The notes: a model not told the origin generated them from the letters alone. A DNA stretch of 64,000 nt from Acutalibacteraceae bacterium (GCA_045587685.1 JAZNCS010000051.1:17149-81148); one strand, 5' to 3'. Shown: positions 1 through 29,772, counted from the first letter of the stretch. Made by a program: numbers and translations.

Positions 1-823
1 ACAAGTGAAGCGGAATACCTTGCGGACAAACACGTGAACATTCGCCACAGTCGGTACATCTACCTGCAACGTGGAACGCGCGGATTATGTGGAACATTTT
101 TTCTTCAAAAGAATCAACGTTTGCTTTTTGTGCTGAATCAAATTTTGTGCTATCAAAAACACATTTTCTACAACTACAAGCAGGGCAAACATTTCTACAA
201 GCATTACAACGAATACATTTGCTAAGTTCTTTTTGGAAAAATGCGAACTTTTCTTCAGGCGACATTTTTTCGATTTTTTCGATTTCACTGAAACGCTCTT
301 TATCATTTGTTTCCTTTGATTCGCCTATAAGTTCATCATAAATTTTATGTTCTTTACCCTTACAAACGTGACAACGCTCAAGCAAAGCATCGTTATACTT
401 CATTTGTGAATTACCATAAAGGGTTTCAATTTCGAGGTTATCGCCATTTTCGGTAATATTTAAAATACCGCTAACGCCATTTGCCTTGATTGTTTCAACG
501 TTGAGTTTACCTTTACAGCCAACGCCGATAATATACGCTTTATCGCGATTAACTCTGTGTTCGTTAATAAGTTGGTTAAAGCTATAAGTATCGCAAGGTT
601 TAAGCAATACTAAAGTTTTGCCCTCTAATTTAGAGGCTTCAATCATATATTTGCTTAAGTTTGCACCGCAAAAACCATCATACACAAAGCTTTCTAATTC
701 TTCTGCGTTTTCAAAAAATGCAGGTTCGGGATTATATGCAAAATCGCCTTTTTTCCAACCGAGTACGCGATTTACTGTACCATCGGCCAAAAGTTCTTTT
801 GCACGGGCAATTATTTCTTGCAT
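1..823 (-). CDS. Fe-S protein, N-terminal 274 codons only (runs off window); FlxB/C-, AsrA- or FrhB-like partner of the Hdr/MvhD genes
   Basis: Absent from the ORF track because there is no stop in the window. Reading the minus strand from ATG 823 (GGGGGA RBS upstream) is open to position 1: MQEIIARAKELLADGTVNRVLGWKKGDF... Two ferredoxin motifs, CIRCNACRNVCP and CTDCGECSRVCP. Start overlaps the mvhD stop by 13 nt. Confidence 0.55.
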   Translation of the reverse strand, partial: MQEIIARAKELLADGTVNRVLGWKKGDFAYNPEPAFFENAEELESFVYDGFCGANLSKYMIEASKLEGKTLVLLKPCDTYSFNQLINEHRVNRDKAYIIGVGCKGKLNVETIKANGVSGILNITENGDNLEIETLYGNSQMKYNDALLERCHVCKGKEHKIYDELIGESKETNDKERFSEIEKIEKMSPEEKFAFFQKELSKCIRCNACRNVCPACSCRKCVFDSTKFDSAQKANVDSFEEKMFHIIRAFHVAGRCTDCGECSRVCPQGIPLHL

Positions 824-1248
824 CTTAAATCCCCCAATCTTACATTTTCGCCAAGAGAATGAATTTTTTCTACAAATTCGTTCATTGTAGTTGAAAACTT
901 TACACCCTCAGCCGCAGAAACCCATTCAACACGGGTTCTACCGTTTTCAATACCCATATAATCAAGCATTGAAAATAATAATGTCATTCTTCTACGAGCA
1001 TAGTAGTTACCTGTTGAATAGTGACAGTCACCAGGGTGGCAACCACACATAATAACACCGTCAGCACCCTTTTCAAACGCGCGAAGAATAAACATTGGGT
1101 TTACTCTACAAGAGCAAGGCACTTTTATAATTTTAACATCAGCAGGGTAAGCAAGACGGCTACTACCTGCCAAGTCAGCACCCGCATATGAGCACCAGTT
1201 ACAGCAAAAGGCAACAATTTTCGGTTTAAATTCTTTGTTTATCGACAT
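811..1248 (-). CDS. mvhD: MvhD/FlxD-like iron-sulfur protein (methyl-viologen-reducing hydrogenase delta subunit family)
   Basis: Track ORF 811..1347 trimmed to ATG 1248 (MSINKEFKPKIVAFCCNWCSYAGADLAG...). Cys pattern CCNWC..CSCR..CGCHPGDCHY. Overlaps the hdrA stop. Confidence 0.8.
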   Translation of the reverse strand: MSINKEFKPKIVAFCCNWCSYAGADLAGSSRLAYPADVKIIKVPCSCRVNPMFILRAFEKGADGVIMCGCHPGDCHYSTGNYYARRRMTLLFSMLDYMGIENGRTRVEWVSAAEGVKFSTTMNEFVEKIHSLGENVRLGDLRCKK

Positions 1249-3227
1249 ATTGCATCTACCTCCGCCATAATTTGTAAGTTTGAGAAGCCTTGTAAGTCCA
1301 TAGCGCCCGAAGGACAAGTAACGGTACAAGCACCGCAACCTTGACAAAGCGCATTATTTACAACTGCAACTCTTCTTGTTTCTCTAATTCCGTGGTCATT
1401 AATTTCTTTTTCTTCGTAAGAAATTGCGCCGTAAGGACATACATTAGCACACTTTGAACAACCATTACACAAAAGTTCATCGGATTTTGCAGTGCAAGGG
1501 TTGGTCATTAACTTATCCTTAGCCAACAAACCAATCGCCTTAACTGCCGCAGCACCTGCTTGTGCTACTGTTTCAGGAATATCCTTAGGGCCTTGGCAAA
1601 CGCCCGAAAGGAATATACCCGCTGTTGGAGACTCAACAGGGCGAAGTTTTGCGTGTGCTTCTGTTAAGAAGTTATCGTTATCAATACTAGCCGTTAGCAT
1701 TGTAGCAATTTTTCTAACATCAGGGTTTGGCTCAATAGCAGCCGCTAAAACTACCATATCAGCCTCTTTTAAGATTTGCTTGTTATCAATTAAATCTACG
1801 CCTTGAACTAAAAGTTTTCCATCAGGTTGAGGTATTACCTTACCAACCTGACCTTTAACGTAATTTACACCGTATGTTTCAACTGCACGACGGTAGAATT
1901 CATCAAAGTTTTTACCCGGAGTACGAACGTCAATATAAAATACTGTTACATTAACATCGGGGTACTTATCGCGGATAAGCATTGCGTGTTTTGCAGTATA
2001 CATACAGCAAATTTTAGAGCAATAACCTTTACCTCTATCATCCGCACAACGAGAACCTACACATTGAATAAACACAATTTCTTTAGGTGCTTTACCATCA
2101 GAAAGTCTTTCGAGGTGTCCCTTTGTTGGACCTGCCGCGTTCATAACACGCTCTAATTCTAAAGATGTAATAACATCCTTGCTTTGTGAGTATGCATATT
2201 CATCATATTTGTCGAGTTTAATCATATCAAAGCCGGTAGCAACAACGATTGCGCCGTACTTTTCGGTAACTATTGTATCTACTTGGTCGTAATCAATAGC
2301 ACCTGCCAAGCAAACTGTTGAGCAAAGACCGCATTTGCCTGTTTTAAACTTAATACAAGCATTTCTATCAATAACAGGAACATTAGGAATTGCTTGTGCA
2401 AAAGGAGTGTAAATAGCGCTTCTATTTTCAAGACCGCGGTTAAATTCGCTTGGAGTTTTCTTCATTGGACATTTTTCTTGACAAAGTCCACAACCTGTGC
2501 ACTTATCCATATCAATACTACGTGCTTTTTTGCGAATGTCTACCGAGAAATTACCTACGAAGCCCGAAACATTTTCAACCTCACTATAGGTATGAATTGT
2601 AATGTTTGGATGAGCCGCAGCCTCAACCATTTTTGGTGTTAAAATACACGCCGAACAGTCAAGGGTTGGGAAAGTTTTATCAAGTTGGGACATTCTGCCG
2701 CCGATACTTGGTTCTTTTTCAACAATATCAACAGGGAAACCTGCATCAGCAATATCAAGCGCAGTTTGGATACCTGCAATACCGCCACCTATAACAAGGG
2801 CGCGTTTTACAACACCGCTTTCCCCTGCTTGTAAAGGCGCATTAAGATTTACCTTTGCAATAGCGGCGCGAGCTAAAATAACCGCCTTTTCGGTTGCTTC
2901 ATCTATATCCTTATGTATCCAAGAACAATGCTCACGAATGTTAGCAATTTCTACCATATAAGGATTTATTCCCGCTCTTTCAGCACATTTGCGGAAGGTT
3001 GCTTCGTGCATACGAGGAGAGCAAGAGCAAACAACAAGACCGTTAAGTTTATATTCTTTTACCGCCTCAATAATTTTTGCCTGACCCGCTTCGGAACACA
3101 TATACTGATAATCATCAGCAAAAATAACGCCAGGTTCGGTTTTAATCATTTCAACTACTTTTTTAACATCAACTGTAGCCGCAATATTACTACCACAGTG
3201 ACATACAAATACACCTATTCTTTGCAT
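1239..3227 (-). CDS. hdrA: HdrA-like FAD/Fe-S oxidoreductase (heterodisulfide reductase subunit A family)
   Basis: 662 aa. N-terminus MQRIGVFVCHCGSNIAATVD, GGGIAGIQTALD FAD fold, several CxxCxxCxxxCP clusters. Confidence 0.85.
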   Translation of the reverse strand: MQRIGVFVCHCGSNIAATVDVKKVVEMIKTEPGVIFADDYQYMCSEAGQAKIIEAVKEYKLNGLVVCSCSPRMHEATFRKCAERAGINPYMVEIANIREHCSWIHKDIDEATEKAVILARAAIAKVNLNAPLQAGESGVVKRALVIGGGIAGIQTALDIADAGFPVDIVEKEPSIGGRMSQLDKTFPTLDCSACILTPKMVEAAAHPNITIHTYSEVENVSGFVGNFSVDIRKKARSIDMDKCTGCGLCQEKCPMKKTPSEFNRGLENRSAIYTPFAQAIPNVPVIDRNACIKFKTGKCGLCSTVCLAGAIDYDQVDTIVTEKYGAIVVATGFDMIKLDKYDEYAYSQSKDVITSLELERVMNAAGPTKGHLERLSDGKAPKEIVFIQCVGSRCADDRGKGYCSKICCMYTAKHAMLIRDKYPDVNVTVFYIDVRTPGKNFDEFYRRAVETYGVNYVKGQVGKVIPQPDGKLLVQGVDLIDNKQILKEADMVVLAAAIEPNPDVRKIATMLTASIDNDNFLTEAHAKLRPVESPTAGIFLSGVCQGPKDIPETVAQAGAAAVKAIGLLAKDKLMTNPCTAKSDELLCNGCSKCANVCPYGAISYEEKEINDHGIRETRRVAVVNNALCQGCGACTVTCPSGAMDLQGFSNLQIMAEVDAICR

Positions 3228-3231
3228 ACGC

Positions 3232-3618
3232 TCACCTCCTATATCTTCTAAATGCGCTAACTAATAACTGTTGAGGAGTTTCCTCATCCAAAAGTTCTGG
3301 TATTTCGTTAGGGGATAAAAATGTTTCACCCTTTTGTCTTATAATTAATTGTCTTGCCGCATCAATAAGTTTTGCAGGTTTAACGTCTCTTGGGCAACGT
3401 TCAATACAAGCAAAGCAAGAAAGACATTTCTCTAGTGATTTTGAATTCACCAAAGCTTCAATATCACCATTAACAACGTAAGACACAAATTGGTGTGGTT
3501 TTATATCCATTTCGTTAAATGAAGGGCAAGAAGCCGAACATTTACCGCATTTCATACATTTAAGCGGATTAACACCGCTAATTTCTTTAATTAAGTCAGC
3601 CTTATTTACAGTACTCAT
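3232..3618 (-). CDS. hdrC: HdrC-like 2x[4Fe-4S] subunit
   Basis: 128 aa with CMKCGKCSASCP and CLSCFACIERCP. 4 nt from the hdrA start. Confidence 0.8.
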   Translation of the reverse strand: MSTVNKADLIKEISGVNPLKCMKCGKCSASCPSFNEMDIKPHQFVSYVVNGDIEALVNSKSLEKCLSCFACIERCPRDVKPAKLIDAARQLIIRQKGETFLSPNEIPELLDEETPQQLLVSAFRRYRR

Positions 3619-3619
3619 A

Positions 3620-4399
3620 TTACGCCTCCTTAATTCCTAAAGCTTCTGCCAAAAGTTCTGTAAAGTAAACTACAGGCAACTCGCCGCACTTGTTTAAATT
3701 ATAAAGACAAAGCGGACAAGCAGTTATTAACATTTCAGCGCCAAAGCCTTTAGCACTTTCCATTATCTTTTGACACATATTTTGTGCCTTCTCACCGTCT
3801 TTAAGTGAAATATATCCGCCGCAACATTCATTACGGTAAGGATAAACTACAGGTGTAGCACCTAAAGCTTTAATAAAATCTTCAATAATTGTTGGGTTTT
3901 CAGGATTATCAAAAGCCAAAACCTTGCTTGGTCTTAAAAGAAGGCAACCATAATATGCCGCAATCTTTCTATCTTTGAGTGGGTTTTTAACCGCTTTTTT
4001 AAGATTATCAAAACCAACCCTGTCACGAAGTACTTCCAAGAAATGAAGCACATTTGTTTCACCCATATATGGTTGTTCTAATTGCATATAGTTATTTGCG
4101 CGGTTTCTGATGTCTTCCACATTTTTTATATCATCATTAACACGCTTAATAACGTGGTGACAAGCAGAACAAAGGGTTACTAAATCTTGGCCTTTTTCTT
4201 TTGCATCATTAAGTGCGCGAACCGAAGAAAGTTTAGAACCGATTTCATCGCTTCCGAGCGGATACACACCGCCGCAACATTGCCAATTTTCAATTTCCTC
4301 TAATTCAAAGCCTAACTCTAAAGCCGAAAGCCTTGCATATTTATCTAAATTTTTAGCTTTAGTTTTAAGCGTACAACCCGGATAATAGCTGTATTTCAT
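3620..4399 (-). CDS. hdrB: HdrB-like subunit with two CCG domains
   Basis: 259 aa. Motifs NWQCCGG and NECCGGY plus downstream CxxC. 1 nt from the hdrC start. Confidence 0.8.
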   Translation of the reverse strand: MKYSYYPGCTLKTKAKNLDKYARLSALELGFELEEIENWQCCGGVYPLGSDEIGSKLSSVRALNDAKEKGQDLVTLCSACHHVIKRVNDDIKNVEDIRNRANNYMQLEQPYMGETNVLHFLEVLRDRVGFDNLKKAVKNPLKDRKIAAYYGCLLLRPSKVLAFDNPENPTIIEDFIKALGATPVVYPYRNECCGGYISLKDGEKAQNMCQKIMESAKGFGAEMLITACPLCLYNLNKCGELPVVYFTELLAEALGIKEA

Positions 4400-4420
4400 A
4401 TTCTTACTCCTACTAAAAAA

Positions 4421-5368
4421 TTACAATTCGATTTGTGAAATAATGTCCTTCAATGTTTTAGCACTGTGTCTTAATTGTTCAATTTCTTCTTCGGTCATAT
4501 CCATTGGAATTTTACCTTGTGCACCGTTAGGACCTACGAGTGTAAGTGTGCTTAAGCAAACATCTTCAATGCCGTATTCACCGTGCATCATAGTTGAAAT
4601 TGTTACTATAGAGTTGTGAGATGAGCACAAAATACCGCAAAGGTTTACTACAGAACTTGAAACCGCATAGAATGTAGCGCCTTTTTTGCTGATAATTTCG
4701 CCACCCGACTTACGAACATAGTTGTATAAAGCTTCTTTATCCAACTTAGGAATTTCTTGACCGCAACGCTTAACAACATCAGCATATTCATCAAGTTTTA
4801 CACCTGAAACGTATGCGCTTGACCAAGGGATAAATGAAGTGTCGCCGTGTTCACCGAAAACGTAAGCGTGAATATTCTTTTGAGCAACTTGGAAATGCTC
4901 TGAAAGACCACAACGAAGACGAGCAGTATCAAGAATGGTACCTGAACCGATAACTTGATTTTCAGGAATGCCTGAAATCTTTGTGAAAACGTATGTCATA
5001 ATATCAACAGGGTTACTAACAATTATGTAAAGTGCATTTGGACAAACTGAAACTATTTTTGGAGTGATTTCTTTTAAGATATTAACGTTTGTTTGGGTAA
5101 GTTCAAGTCTTGTTTGACCTGGTTTACGAGCAATACCAGAAGTAATAATTACTATCTCAGAATCTTTTGCATCTTCATAGTCACCGGCTACCAAAGAAAT
5201 AGGGTCTCTAAAGCAGGTACCTTGAGCAATATCCATTACTTCGCCTTCAACCTTTTCTTTGTTAATATCAATTAACACGATTTCAGAAGCCAAGTCTGTA
5301 GCAGATAAGTTGTATGCGATTGTTGAACCTACGCTACCCGCACCGATAATAGTAATTTTGTTATTCAT
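4421..5368 (-). CDS. ldh: NAD-dependent L-lactate dehydrogenase
   Basis: 315 aa. IIGAGSVGS Rossmann motif, SNPVDIMTY, GSGTILDTARLR, GEHGDT. 21 nt upstream of hdrB. Confidence 0.9.
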   Translation of the reverse strand: MNNKITIIGAGSVGSTIAYNLSATDLASEIVLIDINKEKVEGEVMDIAQGTCFRDPISLVAGDYEDAKDSEIVIITSGIARKPGQTRLELTQTNVNILKEITPKIVSVCPNALYIIVSNPVDIMTYVFTKISGIPENQVIGSGTILDTARLRCGLSEHFQVAQKNIHAYVFGEHGDTSFIPWSSAYVSGVKLDEYADVVKRCGQEIPKLDKEALYNYVRKSGGEIISKKGATFYAVSSSVVNLCGILCSSHNSIVTISTMMHGEYGIEDVCLSTLTLVGPNGAQGKIPMDMTEEEIEQLRHSAKTLKDIISQIEL

Positions 5369-5462
5369 AATATTTTCCCCTTTTTGTACAATTTTTTTGT
5401 TAATTTTTTGTATTATTGTGCAGTATGAACAATAATACTTTTTATTACCTTTCCAAATAGCT

Positions 5463-5491
5463 ATTATACCACATTGTTATAAATTTAACAA
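5463..5491 (-). promoter_or_regulatory. ldh operon promoter (extended -10 TGgTATAAT) with overlapping Rex-type operator TTGTTAAATTTATAACAA
   Basis: 18 bp inverted repeat at 5474..5491 matches the clostridial Rex consensus TTGTTAA-N4-TTAACAA in 17 of 18 positions. TATAAT on the minus strand at 5468..5463. Confidence 0.55.
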
Positions 5492-5523: not shown

Positions 5524-5554
5524 GAAAAATAAAAAGCGCCAAAAAAGGCGCTTT
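5524..5554 (-). terminator. intrinsic terminator after glgP
   Basis: AAAGCGCC-6 nt-GGCGCTTT hairpin followed by a T-run on the minus strand. Confidence 0.7.
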
Positions 5555-5558
5555 AAAT

Positions 5559-7904
5559 TCATATTTTCCAAATTTCTTTTGCGTACTCTTTAATTGTTCT
5601 GTCGGACGAAAATTTACCCGCGTTACACATATTAATCCACTGCTTTTTAGCAAATTCTTTTGAGTTTTTAAAATCTTTATTTACCTTAATTTTAGCATTT
5701 AAAAATTCTTCAAAATCAAGCAATAAATAATAGTTGTCAGGCTTGTGCCAAGAAGCGCCCTCTAAAATAGAGGTATAAAGTTCCTTAAAGTCACCTGTAC
5801 CACCATCCGAAAACGTTCCGTCAACCAAGGTATCTAAACAACGTTTAATACGGCTGTCGCTATTATAAAATTCTTTAGGGTTGTAGGTTTCTTTAAGTCT
5901 TTCTATATCCTCTACCCTTGCGCCGAAGATATAGTTATTTTCCTCTCCCGCTTCGTTCACAATTTCGATATTAGCGCCGTCATAAGTGCCAAGGGTTACA
6001 GCACCGTTGAGCATAAGTTTCATATTGCCTGTACCCGAAGCCTCGGTACCTGCAGTTGAAATTTGTTCCGAAACATCGGCGGCGGCAATAATCTTTTCAG
6101 CATAAGAAACGTTGTAATTTGAAACAAAAACAACATTTATATACTTATTAACTTCGCTGTCGTTCTCTATTAGTTTTGCTATTTCATTTATAAACTTTAT
6201 AATTGCCTTTGCACGTTTGTAACCGGGGGCAGATTTCGCACCAAAAATAAAGGTTGTAGGTGTAAAGTCTTTTAATTTTCCCTCTTTAATTTCAAAATAA
6301 AGTTCCAAAATGCAAAGTGCGTTAAGCAACTGGCGTTTATATTCGTGTAAACGCTTAATTTGAACATCAAAAATACTGTCTACACTAATTTGTTTTTTAT
6401 CGCTTAAATAGATATATTCCGCTAACGCCTTTTTATTTGCATTTTTTATTGAAATAAACTTTTGTAAAATTTCGCTGTCGTTAGAATAAACTTCAAGTTT
6501 TTTCAGTTGTTTTAAATCAGTAACCCATCGTTTGCTACCCAAAAGCGAAGTTATAAACTCGCTCAAAGGCGGATTTGTAACCCCTAACCAACGGCGAGGA
6601 GTTATACCATTGGTTTTGTTTTGGAATTTTTGGGGATATATTTTGAACCAATTTTTAAGCACATCTTGTTTTAAAATATCACTGTGAATTTTTGCAACAC
6701 CGTTAATATAGGACGAGCAAAAACAAGCAAGATATGCCATATGCACTCTGTTTTTTTGAACAATTAAAAGTTCGGGCAATTTTTCCTTTTCAACCTTTAA
6801 TTTGCGAAGTTCCTCTTTAAAAAATTTGTTTATATCAACAATAATTTGAGCAATTTCAGTATTTACCTTTTTAATAAGTTTTAAGTCCCATTTTTCTAAA
6901 GCTTCTTGCATTATTGTATGGTTAGTATAGTTAAAGCTTTTCTTGGCGATTTCCAACGCCTCGCTAAACGGCACACCCTCATTAAGAAGCAACCTTATAA
7001 GTTCAGGTATTGAAATTACAGGGTGGGTATCGTTTAACTGAATTGTTACATATTCAGGTATTTTCGAAAAATCTTCACTGTGATTTTCTTTAAAGTTTTT
7101 CAATATATCCTGCATCGAAGCGCTCGAGAAAAAATACTGCTGTTTAAGTCTTAAAAGTTTCCCTTTTTCGGTATTATCATTAGGATAAAGCACTCTTGAA
7201 ATATCTTCGGCTCTGTTTTTTTCTAAAACCGCTTTGTCATATTCACCATTATCAAAAAGCGAAAAATCCAACTGTTCTATCGGTTCTGCTTGCCATAATC
7301 TTAAATTAGAGATATGCTTTTTCTTGTAAGCGATAATCGGCATATCATAAGGCACTGCGTAAACTTGCGCATCGGTAAACTGAACCTTTACCTTTTCAGC
7401 TTCTCTTCTTACCGACCAAGCATCGCCAAAACTTGTCCAATCATCAAGTGCTTCTTTTTGAAACCCATTTTCAAAATATTGCTTAAAAAGACCAAATTTA
7501 TAGCGAATTCCATAACCATCAAGTGGTAACGACAAATTAGCCGCGCTATCCAAAAAACAAGCCGCAAGTCTTCCGAGTCCGCCGTTACCGAGCGCCGCAT
7601 CTTCTATTTCTTCCAAAAAAGAAATATCCAAACTGTAGTCCTTTAAAATTTTCTTTGCTTCGGTGAAATTTTCGGTGCAAAACAAATTGTTATAAATCGC
7701 TCTGCCAACTAAAAATTCCGCCGATAAATAGTAGGCTCTGCGCTTTTCATTGTGTTCTTTTTGAGATTTTTGTGCCACAGGCGCTATATCCGCCATAACC
7801 GCACGGGATAAACAATCGTGAAGTTCGAAAACATTTAATTTTTCAGGTTCTTTTAAATAGTTCGCTCTTGAAAGAACTTCTATGTTATTTCTTAATTTAC
7901 TCAT
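5559..7904 (-). CDS. glgP: glycogen/maltodextrin phosphorylase
   Basis: About 780 aa. EASGTGNMK pyridoxal-phosphate motif. Start placed at the second ATG (MSKLRNN), which has a GAAAGGG RBS; the track start is 7922. Confidence 0.9.
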   Translation of the reverse strand: MSKLRNNIEVLSRANYLKEPEKLNVFELHDCLSRAVMADIAPVAQKSQKEHNEKRRAYYLSAEFLVGRAIYNNLFCTENFTEAKKILKDYSLDISFLEEIEDAALGNGGLGRLAACFLDSAANLSLPLDGYGIRYKFGLFKQYFENGFQKEALDDWTSFGDAWSVRREAEKVKVQFTDAQVYAVPYDMPIIAYKKKHISNLRLWQAEPIEQLDFSLFDNGEYDKAVLEKNRAEDISRVLYPNDNTEKGKLLRLKQQYFFSSASMQDILKNFKENHSEDFSKIPEYVTIQLNDTHPVISIPELIRLLLNEGVPFSEALEIAKKSFNYTNHTIMQEALEKWDLKLIKKVNTEIAQIIVDINKFFKEELRKLKVEKEKLPELLIVQKNRVHMAYLACFCSSYINGVAKIHSDILKQDVLKNWFKIYPQKFQNKTNGITPRRWLGVTNPPLSEFITSLLGSKRWVTDLKQLKKLEVYSNDSEILQKFISIKNANKKALAEYIYLSDKKQISVDSIFDVQIKRLHEYKRQLLNALCILELYFEIKEGKLKDFTPTTFIFGAKSAPGYKRAKAIIKFINEIAKLIENDSEVNKYINVVFVSNYNVSYAEKIIAAADVSEQISTAGTEASGTGNMKLMLNGAVTLGTYDGANIEIVNEAGEENNYIFGARVEDIERLKETYNPKEFYNSDSRIKRCLDTLVDGTFSDGGTGDFKELYTSILEGASWHKPDNYYLLLDFEEFLNAKIKVNKDFKNSKEFAKKQWINMCNAGKFSSDRTIKEYAKEIWKI

Positions 7905-9390
7905 TTTTACCCTTTCTGCCATAAATGTTTGTATAATTTAAAAGTTTTGTTGCTAATTCTTGCCTTTTTTGTTCTTTTGTCATTCTCCATTTCCAATTTT
8001 CGCCAACAGTTGAAGGAGTATTCATTCTGCTTTCACCATCAAGACCTATTAAATCTTGCATAGTCAGTATACACAAATCAGCAACACTCGACATAGCCGC
8101 AACCATTACCTTTTCTGCAATTTCCTCTTTAGAACACTGCAAGTATTTTTTTGTAAATTCCACTTCTTTTTCGTTTAAGGTTTCTACCCAACCAAGCAAA
8201 GTGTCGTTATCGTGTGTGCCGGTATAAACAACGCAATTATTTTTGTAATTATGCGGCAAATATTCGTTTTCCATATCGCCTGAAAAGGCAAATTGTAACA
8301 CCTTCATACCCGGAAAACCGCTTCGTTTTAACATTTTCCTTACGCCGTTTGTTAAAAAACCTAAATCTTCGGCAATAATTGGCACATCGCCAAGTTTTTG
8401 CTTTACAAACCTCCAAAAAGCGATTGAAGGGCCCTTTTTCCACCTACCGTTACAAGCGTTTTTACTGCCGTACTTTATGGTATAATATCCTTCAAAACCT
8501 CTAAAATGGTCTATACGCACTACATCATAAATCTTAAGTGATGCTTCAAGCCTTTTTAACCACCAAGAATAGCGGTCAAACTTCATATAACGCCAATTAT
8601 AAACAGGATTTCCCCACAACTGCCCTTCTTTTGAAAAACTATCAGGCGGGCAACCGGCAACTACTTTAGGCGTTAAATCTTTATTCAAAACAAAATTTTT
8701 GAGGTTAGACCATACATCAGCGCTATCCGCCGCTACATAAATAGGCAAATCTCCAATAATTTTTATCCCGTTTTTATTGGCATATTCTTTTAAAGCAAAC
8801 CACTGTTTAAAGAAAAAATACTGCAAAATTTTATAGTATTCAATTCTTTCTTTGCACTTTTTTCTCCACTTATTTAATGCGGTTTGTTCGCGTTTTTTAA
8901 TGTCTTCATCCCAAAGGGTATACTCTTTACCTAAAAACTCATCTTTTACCGCCATAAAAAGCGCGTAATCTTCTAACCAATAGGAATTTTTAGCACAAAA
9001 ATCAAAAAAATCTTTAGGGATATTATTTTTAAAATTTTGTTGTAACTTTAAAAATACCTTGTTTCTATTTTTGAAAATTAACGGATAATCAACCGTAGTT
9101 TCATTACTTTCCCAAACAATATTTTTATAATCTTCGGGCGCTAAATATCCTTCTTTTGCTAAAATATCAAGGTCGATAAAATACGGATTTCCCGCAAAGG
9201 TAGAAAAACTTTGGTAAGGTGAATCTCCAAAACTTGTTGGACAAATAGGAAGTATTTGCCAATAACTTTGACCGCTTTGCTTTAAAAAATCTACAAACTC
9301 ATATGCCTCTTTACCGAGAGTTCCTATACCGCTATTAGATACAAGCGATGAAATATGCATAAGTACGCCACTTGCTCTTTTAAATTTCAT
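7897..9390 (-). CDS. malQ: 4-alpha-glucanotransferase (amylomaltase)
   Basis: Track ORF trimmed to MKFKRASGVLMHISSL (GAGAGGA RBS). GH77 motifs VRIDHFRGF and GDLPIYV. Confidence 0.9.
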   Translation of the reverse strand: MKFKRASGVLMHISSLVSNSGIGTLGKEAYEFVDFLKQSGQSYWQILPICPTSFGDSPYQSFSTFAGNPYFIDLDILAKEGYLAPEDYKNIVWESNETTVDYPLIFKNRNKVFLKLQQNFKNNIPKDFFDFCAKNSYWLEDYALFMAVKDEFLGKEYTLWDEDIKKREQTALNKWRKKCKERIEYYKILQYFFFKQWFALKEYANKNGIKIIGDLPIYVAADSADVWSNLKNFVLNKDLTPKVVAGCPPDSFSKEGQLWGNPVYNWRYMKFDRYSWWLKRLEASLKIYDVVRIDHFRGFEGYYTIKYGSKNACNGRWKKGPSIAFWRFVKQKLGDVPIIAEDLGFLTNGVRKMLKRSGFPGMKVLQFAFSGDMENEYLPHNYKNNCVVYTGTHDNDTLLGWVETLNEKEVEFTKKYLQCSKEEIAEKVMVAAMSSVADLCILTMQDLIGLDGESRMNTPSTVGENWKWRMTKEQKRQELATKLLNYTNIYGRKGKNE

Positions 9391-9421
9391 ATAATCAATC
9401 CTCTCGGTTATTTTGTGCTGT

Positions 9422-10081
9422 TTAAGCAAACTTATCCAAATTTTTATCGTAAATCATTGTTCTTGTAACGCTGTAATCTAAAGTTTGTCCTATAAATTGA
9501 AAAAGTGCTGTGAGTACAAGCGTTGGATTTAAGTTTTCTTCATTACCCGCAGTTAAAATCAAAGTCAAAATATCTTTGTTTAATTCCGCTTTTCTAATAT
9601 TGGGCATTATATTTATTTGCTTAATACCGCCTTTTTTGGTCTTTTTATCACATAAAACGGTATCTTTTTCAAAAAATTCATTTATCTTTGAAACAAGAGT
9701 TTCATCTAAATTTTCGAGTTCAACTAAAAACTCGGCAAAGCCTATTTCTTTCATAGCCTTTTTCACTTCGCAAACACCAAAAAATTCTATATCAGGTATC
9801 GAGACAGCGTTTAAAATGTTTGGAATTTCTTCTAAAGGAAATTCATCATCAATAAGTCGGATATCTAATATTTCATAATTTCCCTCAAAACCGAGAGAAA
9901 GCGGAACCGCAAAGTTTAAATAAATATGCTGATTAAACCCTTCGGTAAACCAAACAGGCAAATTTGTTCTTGCAATAAGTCTTGCCATAAATCTATTCAT
10001 ATCCAAATGAGAAACAAATTTCATATTTCCCGTCTTTTTATAAAATAATCTAACGTTTTTCAAAACAAACACCCTTTCCAT
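9422..10081 (-). CDS. TIGR03936/DUF2344 radical-SAM-associated protein
   Basis: Conserved start region VRLFYKKTGNMKFVSHLDMNRFMARLIAR. The upstream part of track ORF 9422..10318 overlaps the preceding gene. Exact start uncertain (ATG 10081, GTG 10072 or TTG 10063). Confidence 0.7.
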   Translation of the reverse strand: MERVFVLKNVRLFYKKTGNMKFVSHLDMNRFMARLIARTNLPVWFTEGFNQHIYLNFAVPLSLGFEGNYEILDIRLIDDEFPLEEIPNILNAVSIPDIEFFGVCEVKKAMKEIGFAEFLVELENLDETLVSKINEFFEKDTVLCDKKTKKGGIKQINIMPNIRKAELNKDILTLILTAGNEENLNPTLVLTALFQFIGQTLDYSVTRTMIYDKNLDKFA

Positions 10082-14782: not shown

Positions 14783-15412
14783 TTATTCATTATTCATTTT
14801 ATAAGAAAGTCTCATTAAAATGTCACCAAAATGCACATTTTCTACTTTTACTTCAGGGTGATTTATTGCTATATCATAATGACTGAAATTCCAAAAGCCT
14901 TTAACACCTAATTTAATTAACTGTTCACAAATACCCTCTGCTGCATTTTTAGGTATGCAAAGAATTGCAACCTCGGGGAAATTCTCGCGGCAAAATTCAT
15001 CTAAATCATCAGTGCTTCTAATAGGTAAATTTTTAACCACTTGACCCACCAAAGATTCCTTTGCATCAAAAAGACCGGTCAACTTAAAACCTTTAGACTC
15101 AAAATTTATGTGCATTGTAACTGCTCTACCTAAATTACCCATACCTATAAGTATTGCACTTTTAATTTTATCAAGTCCTAAAATATGCGCAATTTCAGAT
15201 TGCAACAATTCAATATTATAGCCATAGCCTTGTTGACCAAAACCACCGAAACAGTTTAAATCTTGACGGATTTGACTGGCAGTAAGCCCCATTTTTTCGG
15301 AAAGTTCGCGCGAAGAAATTCTTGTATAACCAGCCGACTTTAAATCACCTAAAAATCTATAATACCTTGGTAATCTACTTATAACTGAATTTGAAATTGA
15401 ATTATTATTCAT
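14783..15412 (-). CDS. rex: redox-sensing transcriptional repressor Rex
   Basis: 209 aa. ISRLPRYYRFL winged-helix motif, GMGNLG Rossmann motif. Confidence 0.9.
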   Translation of the reverse strand: MNNNSISNSVISRLPRYYRFLGDLKSAGYTRISSRELSEKMGLTASQIRQDLNCFGGFGQQGYGYNIELLQSEIAHILGLDKIKSAILIGMGNLGRAVTMHINFESKGFKLTGLFDAKESLVGQVVKNLPIRSTDDLDEFCRENFPEVAILCIPKNAAEGICEQLIKLGVKGFWNFSHYDIAINHPEVKVENVHFGDILMRLSYKMNNE

Positions 15413-28162: not shown

Positions 28163-28444
28163 ATGTTCGTTGGAAAAGTTGTAGGAAGTATTGTTTCTAC
28201 ACGCAAAAATGAAAAGTTAATCGGCTGTAAATTTATGGTTGTTGAACCTTTAGAAAAATGGGGCAACTCAGCTGAAAAAATTATTACTATTGATAATGTT
28301 GGCGCCGGTATAGGCGAAATTGTTTTAGTTGCTACAGGCAGCGCTGCAAGAATCGGCTGTGATATGACCGACTCTCCTATTGATGCTGCTATTGTAGGTA
28401 TTGTAGATGATGGAATCGGATTAGCCGGAGTCGTTAAGAAATGA
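28163..28444 (+). CDS. BMC-P pentameric vertex protein (EutN/PduN/CcmL family)
   Basis: MFVGKVVGSIVSTRKNEKL.G.KFMVV. The track start at GTG 28154 is also possible. Confidence 0.85.
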   Translation: MFVGKVVGSIVSTRKNEKLIGCKFMVVEPLEKWGNSAEKIITIDNVGAGIGEIVLVATGSAARIGCDMTDSPIDAAIVGIVDDGIGLAGVVKK

Positions 28445-29772
28445 ATTTAGAGGAATTAAAAAACCTATTACGTGAAGGTGGCGTTGTAGGTGCTGGCGGT
28501 GCAGGATTTCCTACATACGCAAAGCTTGACAAACGTGCCGACACTATTATTCTAAACTGTGCGGAATGTGAACCGCTTTTGAAACTTCACCGTCAGGTGT
28601 TAGAGCGTTACACTGATGATATTTTATCCGCATTAGATTTAATTGCGAAAACAATAGGAGCAAAGAATGTAATCATTGGCATTAAAAAGGCTTATAAAAG
28701 AACCTTTAATGCCGTTGAAAGCCAACTTGACTCCTTTGATAATATGAAAATACACGCTTTGCCGGAGGTTTACCCTGCCGGTGATGAAGTTGTGCTTATT
28801 TATGAAGCAACCAAACGTGTAGTTCCACCCGGAAAGTTACCAATTGATGTTGGTGTTACAGTTTTTAATGTTGAAACTGTTTACAACCTTTCTAAACTTC
28901 TTGGTGGTCACCCCGTTACACACAAATTTGTTAGCGTTGTTGGTGAGGTTGCGAGCCCCGTTACATTAAATGTACCTATAGGTACACCCGTTTCAAGATT
29001 AATTGAACTCGCGGGTGGCGCTACTACCGAAGAACCCGTTTTAATAATGGGCGGTCCTATGACTGGTAATATCGGAAGCGAATACCAAACGGTTACAAAA
29101 ACCACAAATGCAGTTATTGTTTTACCTGCATCACATACATTAGTTAAAAAGAAACAAAGCAAAACTACTATTGATATTAAACGTGCTATGGCTGCTTGTT
29201 GCCAATGTGACTATTGCACAAGCCTTTGCCCTCGCAATCTTTTAGGACATCCGATTGAACCTGGCAAATTTATGCTTTACGCTTCAAATAATTTTACTAA
29301 GGATGCTTCACCATACGTTAATTCATTGTTCTGCTGCAGTTGCGGACTTTGCGAACTTTATTCTTGTGGCCAAGGACTTCATCCACGTTCTTTGTTAGAT
29401 TCTTGTAAGTCAGGGCTTCGCTCAAACGGTGTTCGCCCACCGCAAGATGCTGAACAAAAGTCAGTTAACCCTTCAAGAGAAAGACGTTTGGTTCCTATGA
29501 GCCGTTTAATTGCAAGACTCGGTCTTGTTGCTTATAATAAACCCGCTCCGCTTAAAAGTGCGCCTGTTACTGCTACAAGCGTTAAAATACCTTTATCACA
29601 ACATATCGGAGCACCTGCTATACCTGTCGTAGCAGTTGGCGACCTTGTAAAAGAAGGTCAAGTTATAGCCGCTGCCGCAGATAAAGCATTAAGTGTAAAT
29701 ATTCACTCTTCTATCAAGGGTGAAATCACAAAGATTTCAGACAAATTTATTACTATTGAAGTTAGAAATTAA
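28441..29772 (+). CDS. PduS-like flavin/Fe-S oxidoreductase (RnfC/NuoF-like fold)
   Basis: GAGGAGFPT, CCQCDYCTSLCP, CCSCGLCELYSC. Confidence 0.8.
   Translation: MNLEELKNLLREGGVVGAGGAGFPTYAKLDKRADTIILNCAECEPLLKLHRQVLERYTDDILSALDLIAKTIGAKNVIIGIKKAYKRTFNAVESQLDSFDNMKIHALPEVYPAGDEVVLIYEATKRVVPPGKLPIDVGVTVFNVETVYNLSKLLGGHPVTHKFVSVVGEVASPVTLNVPIGTPVSRLIELAGGATTEEPVLIMGGPMTGNIGSEYQTVTKTTNAVIVLPASHTLVKKKQSKTTIDIKRAMAACCQCDYCTSLCPRNLLGHPIEPGKFMLYASNNFTKDASPYVNSLFCCSCGLCELYSCGQGLHPRSLLDSCKSGLRSNGVRPPQDAEQKSVNPSRERRLVPMSRLIARLGLVAYNKPAPLKSAPVTATSVKIPLSQHIGAPAIPVVAVGDLVKEGQVIAAAADKALSVNIHSSIKGEITKISDKFITIEVRN

Follow-up and report, generated by a model that had tools for sequence, protein, structure and literature searches.

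A 13-gene operon at the start of the window

The DNA analyzed here is a stretch of 64,000 nucleotides from an Acutalibacteraceae bacterium (GCA_045587685.1, JAZNCS010000051.1:17149-81148), called the window below, and the element under study is a minus-strand operon whose first genes lie within positions 1 to 5491. The operon has the order mdh-hdrB-hdrC-hdrA-mvhD-flxC-flxB-flxA-frdB-frdA-fumA-fumB-AAEx transporter, with 13 genes over roughly 12.4 kb (Table 1). On the minus strand, the mdh/hdrB, hdrB/hdrC and hdrC/hdrA spacings are 21 nt, 1 nt and 4 nt, the hdrA/mvhD overlap is 10 nt, and the mvhD/flxC overlap is 13 nt. For the six genes that begin in the window, the same list, order and spacings had been given in a first-pass annotation of the window, made from the sequence alone, and they were borne out by the open reading frames (ORFs) and the family matches.

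The operon was followed into the 17 kb that precede the window (L001), where it continues unbroken for 7 kb past window position 1. The first-pass annotation had expected flxA/B-like genes in this direction, and FlxC, FlxB and FlxA were indeed found there. The flxCBA genes are followed by frdB, frdA, fumAB and the transporter gene, and the meaning of the whole block therefore changes. The acceptor had been proposed to be an unknown disulfide; it is most simply fumarate, since the rest of the operon encodes FrdB, FrdA, fumarase and a transporter of the dicarboxylate type.

The widest intergenic gap of the operon is the 21 nt between mdh and hdrB, which holds a ribosome-binding site and nothing else. 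As judged by sequence, there is no terminator signal at this junction, as the first reading had it. No terminator-like hairpin was found in the intergenic gaps of the window block, and the weak matches were all within coding sequence; this agrees with the earlier statement that no terminator separates the genes. The only strong terminator lies past the transporter gene. Promoter-like matches within the block were not above shuffled sequences (15 versus 18.0, standard deviation 4.9). A split into sub-operons via internal promoters or terminators was ruled out, with the promoter matches at or below the shuffles and the terminator matches weak and intracoding. The upstream boundary is the terminator of glgP at 5554-5533, and the glgP stop at 5559 lies directly before it.

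Table 1 Features of the operon and its regulatory sites. Coordinates are window positions; those outside the window are given as L001 positions (window position = L001 position - 17148).
Feature	Coordinates	Strand	Details
glgP terminator, upstream operon boundary	5533..5554	-	8 bp stem, 5 GC pairs, T-run
Promoter	5463..5491	-	-35 TTGTTA, 17 nt spacer, extended -10 TG-n-TATAAT
Rex-type operator, overlaps -35	5474..5491	-	one mismatch to TTGTTAA-N4-TTAACAA
Inverted repeat, 9 bp, 5' leader	5411..5437	-	TATTATTGT, 9 nt spacer, ACAATAATA
mdh, most likely LDH-type malate dehydrogenase (315 aa)	4421..5368	-	Ldh_1_N and Ldh_1_C (PF00056, PF02866)
hdrB-like subunit (259 aa)	3620..4399	-	PF02754 matched twice (CCG domains)
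hdrC-like subunit (128 aa)	3232..3618	-	TIGR03290 and Fer4 dicluster
hdrA (662 aa), FAD and Fe-S flavoprotein	1239..3227	-	NF040770 HdrA2; Pyr_redox_2; several Fer4
mvhD/flxD (145 aa from Met34 of the longest ORF)	811..1248	-	PF02662 FlpD, E 1.7e-54
flxC-like Fe-S gene, 5' part	1..823	-	Fer4 dicluster; full gene 319 aa, ends L001 17012
flxB, AsrA/HydB-like Fe-S protein	L001 15977-17008		beyond window position 1
flxA	L001 15123-15977		FAD_binding_6, NAD_binding_1, DHODB_Fe-S_bind ([2Fe-2S])
frdB (224 aa)	L001 14434-15108		one [2Fe-2S] and two [4Fe-4S] motifs
frdA flavoprotein	L001 12810-14420		closest to TfrA
fumA	L001 11959-12801		class I fumarase subunit
fumB	L001 11397-11957		class I fumarase subunit
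AAEx (AspT/YidE-family) transporter	L001 10135-11394		last operon gene
Operon terminator	L001 10123-10095		13 bp stem, 7 GC pairs, T-run; strong, solely after the transporter
rex, redox-sensing repressor (209 aa)	14783..15412	-	NF003990 277.4 bits against cut-off 233; PF06971 76.6 bits

Flx-Hdr and fumarate reductase subunits

All seven subunit types of a FlxABCD-HdrABC complex are encoded together, namely HdrA, HdrB, HdrC, MvhD, FlxC, FlxB and FlxA. HdrB carries two complete CCG motifs, one formed by Cys9, 41, 42, 77 and 80 and the other by Cys152, 192, 193, 228 and 231, and all 10 of these cysteines were invariant across 45 orthologues. The best solved relatives of HdrB are the methanogen HdrB proteins (8rvv, E 4e-37). 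When CCG proteins were sought in the genome, which is 87% complete, only the two domains of HdrB were found. HdrC has eight cysteines in two CxxCxxCxxxC ([4Fe-4S]) motifs and a conserved C-terminal tail (residues 103-128). HdrA matched the HdrA2 model NF040770 with 790.7 bits over model positions 1-640 of 777 and is the presumed bifurcation site. The MvhD orthologues are 144-146 aa long, and flxC and flxB are paralogues.

The nearest match of FrdA is TfrA, a subunit of thiol:fumarate reductase (E 7e-100). The motifs HPTG, HYxNGG and NRLxGNSL are kept, and an asparagine replaces the histidine that binds FAD covalently. Asparagine in place of this histidine, with non-covalent FAD, is the pattern of soluble fumarate reductases that work only in the direction of reduction. 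The curated TfrA and TfrB cut-offs were not reached by the operon proteins, and a domain and motif search of the 224 aa FrdB found no CCG domain. Transmembrane-like segments were absent from all operon proteins except the transporter, and the operon holds no FrdC/D-like membrane-anchor gene. The fumarate reductase is predicted from these sequences to be membrane-free and without covalent FAD. An assignment of FrdA as L-aspartate oxidase was rejected: its scores were well below the NadB cut-offs, it is nearer to TfrA, and it has FrdB as partner and fumarase genes as neighbours.

Identity of the head gene

The head gene had been named a classical NAD-dependent L-lactate dehydrogenase (L-LDH). 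The profile scores are ambiguous because the cut-offs of both lactate dehydrogenase (LDH) and malate dehydrogenase (MDH) models were passed: 346.4 versus 339 for the LDH model NF000824, 336.3 versus 303.55 for the LDH model TIGR01771, and 286.8 versus 283 for the MDH subfamily NF004863. Residue and context evidence must then decide. The catalytic set Arg87, Asp147, Arg150 and His174, which corresponds to LDH Arg109, Asp168, Arg171 and His195, is present; being common to MDHs and LDHs, it does not discriminate. The residue aligned to LDH position 102, which is Gln in LDHs, is Arg81. It faces the Gln of the AQKPGETR stretch in the Q-type LDH 4m1q, and 1y6j of C. thermocellum has Arg there. 1y6j is probably the characterised C. 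thermocellum MDH Cthe_0345; the papers found to mention 1y6j only pair it with a halophilic MDH.

Arg at position 102 was found in 56/56 operon-linked orthologues, and in the tree the Arg-type proteins group as a clade distinct from the four Gln102 LDHs that related genomes encode. The congeners have the order pepck-mdh-fumC-hdrBCA-mvhD-flxCBA-frdB, in which mdh is flanked by an oxaloacetate-making and a malate-using enzyme. No other gene of the LDH/MDH family was found in the 87% complete genome. A co-occurrence analysis was then run over 41 related genomes. The Arg-type gene was present in 10, and frdB was present in all 10, whereas none of the genomes with a Gln102 LDH only had frdB. This ties the head gene to frdB and fumarate reduction, not to lactate, and the coupling to pyruvate/lactate that the first-pass annotation had suggested is not sustained. 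Because of Arg81, the Arg of the orthologues, the pepck and fumC neighbours and the co-occurrence with frdB, the head gene is most likely a malate dehydrogenase of the LDH lineage and not an L-LDH.

The same situation has been described in C. cellulolyticum. Ccel_0137, at first predicted to be an LDH, carries Arg81 at the discriminating position and functions as the principal NADH-dependent MDH (Li et al. 2012, PMC3268733). That study compares two C. cellulolyticum paralogues, both first predicted to be LDHs, and cites the classical Gln102Arg switch rule (PMC3268733).

Orthologues at 79% identity (P0005, P0022) carry the name L-lactate dehydrogenase in NCBI, UniRef and JGI, and P0022 occurs on at least 1000 contigs. 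In view of the operon context and the Arg at position 102, a whole clade of malate dehydrogenases seems to have been systematically misnamed.

Rex regulation

The site at 5491-5463 is the best promoter-like site of the region, with 10/12 matches plus the TG. Its -35 element is overlapped by a box that was scored against TTGTTAA-N4-TTAACAA, the clostridial Rex consensus. The box at 5474-5491 is among only 9 sites with one mismatch or less in the 1.38 Mb genome. A box of this quality was found within about 300 nt upstream of mdh at 25/57 orthologous loci, compared with a mean of 0.06 in shuffles and 0/228 in coding controls. The layout of box plus extended -10 recurs upstream of mdh in the relatives L017, L019 and L020, with variants in L022 and L091. 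The rex gene itself lies 10 kb from the operon, within the window, and its product is the probable regulator of the operon. The Rex operator that had been placed ahead of the operon thus holds, as a one-mismatch box that overlaps the -35 element and is conserved upstream of orthologous mdh genes.

The core of the inverted repeat in the 5' leader consists of Rex-like half-sites that span 17 and not 18 nt, one base too short. At a comparable place in the leader, a proper second Rex-like box is present in L019 and L020, and the repeat is absent from L017. The repeat is possibly a degenerate second Rex site. Another one-mismatch Rex-like box was found at G000:C61:61034-61051 (L104 2135-2152), just upstream of the gene for GTP-dependent phosphoenolpyruvate (PEP) carboxykinase. 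With this box included, the whole branch from PEP to succinate may be one Rex regulon.

An intergenic Rex-like box was also seen 59 nt upstream of serC (C58:25730). Two perfect Rex-like boxes, at C20:41918 inside a parB/noc-like gene and at C45:465 at the 3' end of a rubrerythrin gene, look non-regulatory and were set aside. Because perfect boxes also occur at such sites, the Rex motif alone is no proof of regulation.

Distribution and conservation of the operon

The FrdB profile found at least 568 relatives in a collection with one genome per species. The comparisons of operon loci cover the best 80 of these at least 568 relatives, and 66 of the loci reach hdrB. The best 80 come from gut and rumen Clostridia, including Acutalibacteraceae, Lachnospiraceae (with Blautia and Dorea), Oscillospiraceae, Ruminococcaceae and Anaerovoracaceae. 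Among the carriers are the cultured strains Blautia celeris NSJ-34, Anaeromassilibacillus senegalensis An867 and Lachnospiraceae bacterium 3-2. The core order hdrB-hdrC-hdrA-mvhD-flxC-flxB-flxA-frdB-frdA was invariant in the compared loci. The fumAB genes come next after frdA, and the transporter gene, which is usually present, stands before or after fumAB. An Arg-type mdh starts 56 of the 66 loci that reach hdrB; the linkage of the head gene with hdrBCA-mvhD noted in the first reading is therefore kept in related genomes.

The identities between loci are uneven. The core from hdrB to fumB shares 86-99% protein identity with an Acutalibacteraceae metagenome-assembled genome (MAG; L017), but the values fall to 76% for mdh and 63% for the transporter. 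For FrdB, the identity is 92% to a genome from another family (G026), as opposed to 71-75% to the congeners, which have the mdh-fumC-hdrB type of operon. Because the core and end identities and the FrdB identities diverge in this way, the comparison suggests a mosaic operon shaped by horizontal transfer and swapped end modules.

Two variations were noted among the loci. The hdrA gene is present as two consecutive ORFs in L027 and L089; the split could stem from a frameshift, from misassembly or from a stop codon in frame, for instance one read as selenocysteine. L028 has two tandem copies of the Arg-type mdh, which are 54% and 75% identical to the mdh of the window.

Modelled contact between HdrB and FrdB

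A complex of HdrB, HdrC and FrdB was modelled, with FrdB as the partner. The interface score ipSAE was 0.79, and the best of the 3 controls reached 0.00. The runs shared at least 90% of their contacts, and the confidence measure pLDDT of the partner was at least 70. In the model, FrdB residues 108-114 and 159-160, beside Cys110, Cys113 and Cys158, face HdrB residues 9 and 38-43, which include Cys9 and Cys41. The modelled interface joins one [4Fe-4S] site of FrdB, with Cys110, Cys113, Cys116 and Cys158 as ligands, to the N-terminal CCG site of HdrB, and the tail of HdrC (103-128) clamps FrdB. The two clusters are thereby predicted to be close enough for electron transfer. A search for solved relatives of FrdB gave none beyond generic ferredoxin domains; therefore, the pass of the model is unlikely to be a memory of a like complex. 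The model favours a direct protein wiring from HdrB to FrdB rather than a soluble thiol/disulfide shuttle.

Proposed pathway and energetics

As read from the genes and their context, the operon probably encodes the branch from oxaloacetate to exported succinate, via a soluble fumarate reductase fed by an NADH-driven Flx-Hdr complex, with HdrA as the probable site of bifurcation, direct wiring as the favoured route to FrdB, and control by Rex. In the proposed pathway, PEP would be carboxylated to oxaloacetate by the GTP-dependent PEP carboxykinase, and the MDH encoded by the head gene would convert oxaloacetate and NADH to malate. The class I fumarase FumAB would turn malate into fumarate. FrdA, with non-covalent FAD, and FrdB, with one [2Fe-2S] and two [4Fe-4S] clusters, would reduce fumarate to succinate in a membrane-free form, and the AAEx-family transporter would export the succinate. 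Rex would repress the operon, and probably the PEP carboxykinase gene as well, until the NADH/NAD+ ratio rises.

The electrons would enter from NADH at FlxA and reach the HdrA FAD by way of FlxB, FlxC and MvhD. They are probably bifurcated by HdrA, so that one electron would run downhill via HdrC, HdrB, FrdB and FrdA to fumarate, and the other uphill to ferredoxin. The net reaction would be 2 NADH + fumarate + 2 oxidised ferredoxin -> 2 NAD+ + succinate + 2 reduced ferredoxin. The reduced ferredoxin would be used by Rnf or by hydrogenases, and the whole would amount to a quinone-free form of fumarate respiration. The standard potentials are about +30 mV for fumarate/succinate, about -320 mV for NAD and about -450 mV for ferredoxin. 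Judged from these potentials, the bifurcation should be thermodynamically feasible.

The genome encodes, besides the GTP-dependent PEP carboxykinase, RnfC, four [FeFe]-hydrogenase-type genes and pyruvate:ferredoxin oxidoreductase. A UbiA/MenA-type prenyltransferase for quinone synthesis was not found in the genome, at 87% completeness. With Rnf and ferredoxin-dependent enzymes present and a quinone prenyltransferase not found, energy from fumarate reduction could be conserved only through bifurcation.

The most specific form of this proposal is a thiol-independent, directly wired, bifurcating NADH:fumarate/ferredoxin oxidoreductase, in which the non-cubane clusters of HdrB would be a relay to the docked FrdB and not a disulfide-reducing site. 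It is advanced tentatively, with a likelihood that we place slightly below even.

Alternative explanations

Three other explanations were weighed against this proposal. The CCG chemistry raises the possibility of a thiol-mediated coupling as in methanogen Hdr and Tfr, in which Flx-Hdr would use NADH to reduce a soluble disulfide while bifurcating to ferredoxin, and FrdAB would re-oxidise the thiols to reduce fumarate. Both full CCG motifs of HdrB, its closeness to true methanogen HdrB, and TfrA as the nearest relative of FrdA are in line with such a shuttle, and electron transfer to 'ferredoxin (and thiols)' is mentioned in PMC7282089. However, CCG domains are absent from FrdB, and the genome yielded no CCG protein besides HdrB, which leaves no apparent site of thiol re-oxidation. 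FrdB is predicted to dock such that one of its [4Fe-4S] sites faces the N-terminal CCG cluster site of HdrB, and the operon has no candidate gene for a thiol carrier. The thiol shuttle is regarded as quite unlikely. The Flx-Hdr part could also be a plain electron wire within a soluble, non-bifurcating NADH:fumarate reductase that reduces no ferredoxin. Electron transfer from NADH to fumarate is strongly exergonic by itself, the operon has no ferredoxin gene, and, in the literature searched, no Flx-Hdr complex is known to have been demonstrated to bifurcate. Seven extra redox subunits, kept in invariant order and including a full HdrA, would nevertheless be a costly wire, and Rnf and ferredoxin-dependent enzymes are encoded in the genome, whereas a quinone prenyltransferase was not found there. 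We consider such a plain wire unlikely.

The last explanation keeps the head gene as a true NAD-dependent L-LDH, so that the Hdr/Flx complex would link both ferredoxin and an unknown disulfide to the pools of pyruvate/lactate and NADH. The head protein scores above the curated thresholds of two L-LDH models (NF000824 and TIGR01771), its best solved relatives are LDHs, the residues of the fructose-bisphosphate site (Arg173 and His188, read against LDH numbering) appear to be retained, and public records call the orthologues L-LDH. These points are set against the Arg at position 102, here and in every one of the 56 operon-linked orthologues, the separate clade, the place of the gene between pepck and fumC in congeners, and its restriction to frdB-positive genomes among the 41 relatives, where genomes with a Gln102 LDH only are frdB-negative. 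An acceptor is also already supplied by the operon through its fumarase, fumarate reductase and dicarboxylate-type exporter. An L-LDH at the head of the operon is accordingly judged highly improbable.

Several points weigh against the proposed succinate branch and its wiring. The alignments behind the complex model were shallow (45 rows, with 57-92% identity to the query), and the score is the model's own confidence. The alignments were also self-made, so that the calibration of the ipSAE mark, which was reached by 58/80 solved complexes and 2/110 mismatched pairs, holds only roughly here. HdrB keeps both complete CCG motifs, and their chemistry is used in disulfide reduction. The reduction of ferredoxin, the use of NADH and not NADPH as donor, and the stoichiometry are what we infer from the gene content, and no purification or assay of this enzyme type was found in the literature searched. 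With a genome that is 87% complete, a second CCG protein, quinone synthesis and another LDH or MDH count as 'not found' only. The head protein scores slightly higher on the LDH than on the MDH models, and MDHs of the LDH type can keep some lactate dehydrogenase activity, with overlapping specificities (PMC3268733).

Significance

The value of this operon is that of a clean, testable case, with cultured carriers at hand, of a design that has been proposed before. The present analysis adds residue and context evidence for mdh, a co-occurrence count, the check for a single CCG protein, and a docking model in favour of a direct HdrB-FrdB contact as the wiring. If the mechanism is true, succinate formation in many gut Clostridia would be coupled to the reduction of ferredoxin, with energy conservation or H2 release via Rnf or hydrogenases and without any quinone. 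It would then bear on the succinate and H2 fluxes of the gut and on the acceptor of bacterial Hdr complexes. If both the direct wiring and the bifurcation are true, an energy-conserving fumarate respiration would be available to hundreds of quinone-free species of gut Clostridia, and a physiological acceptor would be named for bacterial Hdr complexes. Predictions that rely on the L-LDH annotations of this clade may overstate lactate production and understate the succinate branch, because the orthologues named L-LDH are most likely MDHs.

Neighbouring genes

Upstream of the operon, on the same strand, positions 5559-9429 encode a glycogen/maltodextrin phosphorylase (787 aa) and the 4-alpha-glucanotransferase MalQ (510 aa), which overlap by 26 nt and have their own terminator. 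Past the operon terminator, an ORF of 133 aa (L001 9646-10047) has five transmembrane-like segments, no family match, and a promoter-like site and terminator of its own. Elsewhere in the window, a microcompartment locus contains an RnfC/PduS-like frame at 28429-29370, with 197.5 bits to TIGR01945 and one TAA stop inside the match.

Comparison with known systems

The operon type is known. Its design was proposed in 2019-2020 and is common in gut Clostridia, and the idea itself is not new. The first-pass annotation was aware of no described system of this kind; a 'succinate operon' that combines Flx-Hdr with fumarate reductase had already been published (PMC7282089; PMC6315080). Of that first reading as a whole, the tightly packed Flx/Hdr-type operon behind a Rex operator stands, and the L-LDH identity, the disulfide acceptor and the view of an undescribed system do not.

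The closest described case is the 'succinate operon' CDQ83_RS03365-03315 of Pseudoclostridium (Hungateiclostridium) thermosuccinogenes (Koendjbiharie et al. 2020, PMC7282089). It encodes fumarate hydratase, all seven Flx-Hdr subunits, both subunits of a fumarate reductase and a putative transporter of succinate. A coupling of fumarate reduction to ferredoxin has been put forward for this operon; it was about 4-fold induced under CO2 limitation, and the support is from transcripts only (PMC7282089). A 2019 preprint of Koendjbiharie and van Kranenburg is cited in that paper. Both systems unite fumarate hydratase, Flx-Hdr, FrdAB and a transporter in one operon, and the same bifurcation is proposed for both, with orthology to the CDQ83 genes judged from the published description only (PMC7282089). 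They differ in that mdh heads the operon here, class I FumAB follows frdA here whereas fumarase is the first gene there, and a Rex box lies on the promoter here. The host here is an uncultured gut Clostridia MAG whose nearest records are Acutalibacteraceae.

The FlxABCD-HdrABC complex of Desulfovibrio vulgaris (Ramos et al. 2015, as cited in PMC7282089 and PMC6315080) has the same seven subunit types: the FAD/NAD-binding FlxA, the Fe-S paralogues FlxB and FlxC, the MvhD-like FlxD, and HdrABC. The gene order here is inverted (hdrBCA-flxDCBA), and the partners are mdh, frdBA and fum instead of an alcohol dehydrogenase. The acceptor proposed here is fumarate and not DsrC or another disulfide.

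Clusters of flxABCD-hdrABC-korABCD-tfrAB for the reductive tricarboxylic acid (rTCA) cycle were described in tubeworm symbionts and Thioflavicoccus mobilis, and one complex that shuttles electrons directly from Flx-Hdr to the Tfr-like fumarate reductase was suggested (Rubin-Blum et al. 2019, PMC6315080). The likeness is that Flx-Hdr genes are interspersed with those of a Tfr-like soluble fumarate reductase. The rTCA clusters, which also encode 2-oxoglutarate:ferredoxin oxidoreductase, let Gammaproteobacteria fix CO2 autotrophically, whereas the operon here would serve a fermentative succinate branch with an exporter.

The TfrAB thiol:fumarate reductase of Methanothermobacter (Heim et al. 1998, as cited in PMC6315080) resembles the present system in that FrdA is nearest to TfrA, and FrdB, HdrC and HdrB together span the cofactor modules of TfrB. 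TfrB is one polypeptide with CCG domains of its own, and CoM-SH and CoB-SH are its thiols; in the present system CCG is missing from FrdB and supplied by HdrB, a subunit of an Hdr complex.

For the head gene, the closest parallels are Ccel_0137 and Cthe_0345, both first predicted to be L-LDH, with Arg at the Gln102 position, and the main NADH-dependent MDH (PMC3268733). The head protein is no nearer to 1y6j (270.1 bits) than to a Q-type LDH (271.3 bits), and these scores do not point to a common descent of the Arg. The Ccel_0137 and Cthe_0345 genes pair with malic enzyme in a malate shunt, whereas the mdh of the window heads a fumarate-reductase operon.

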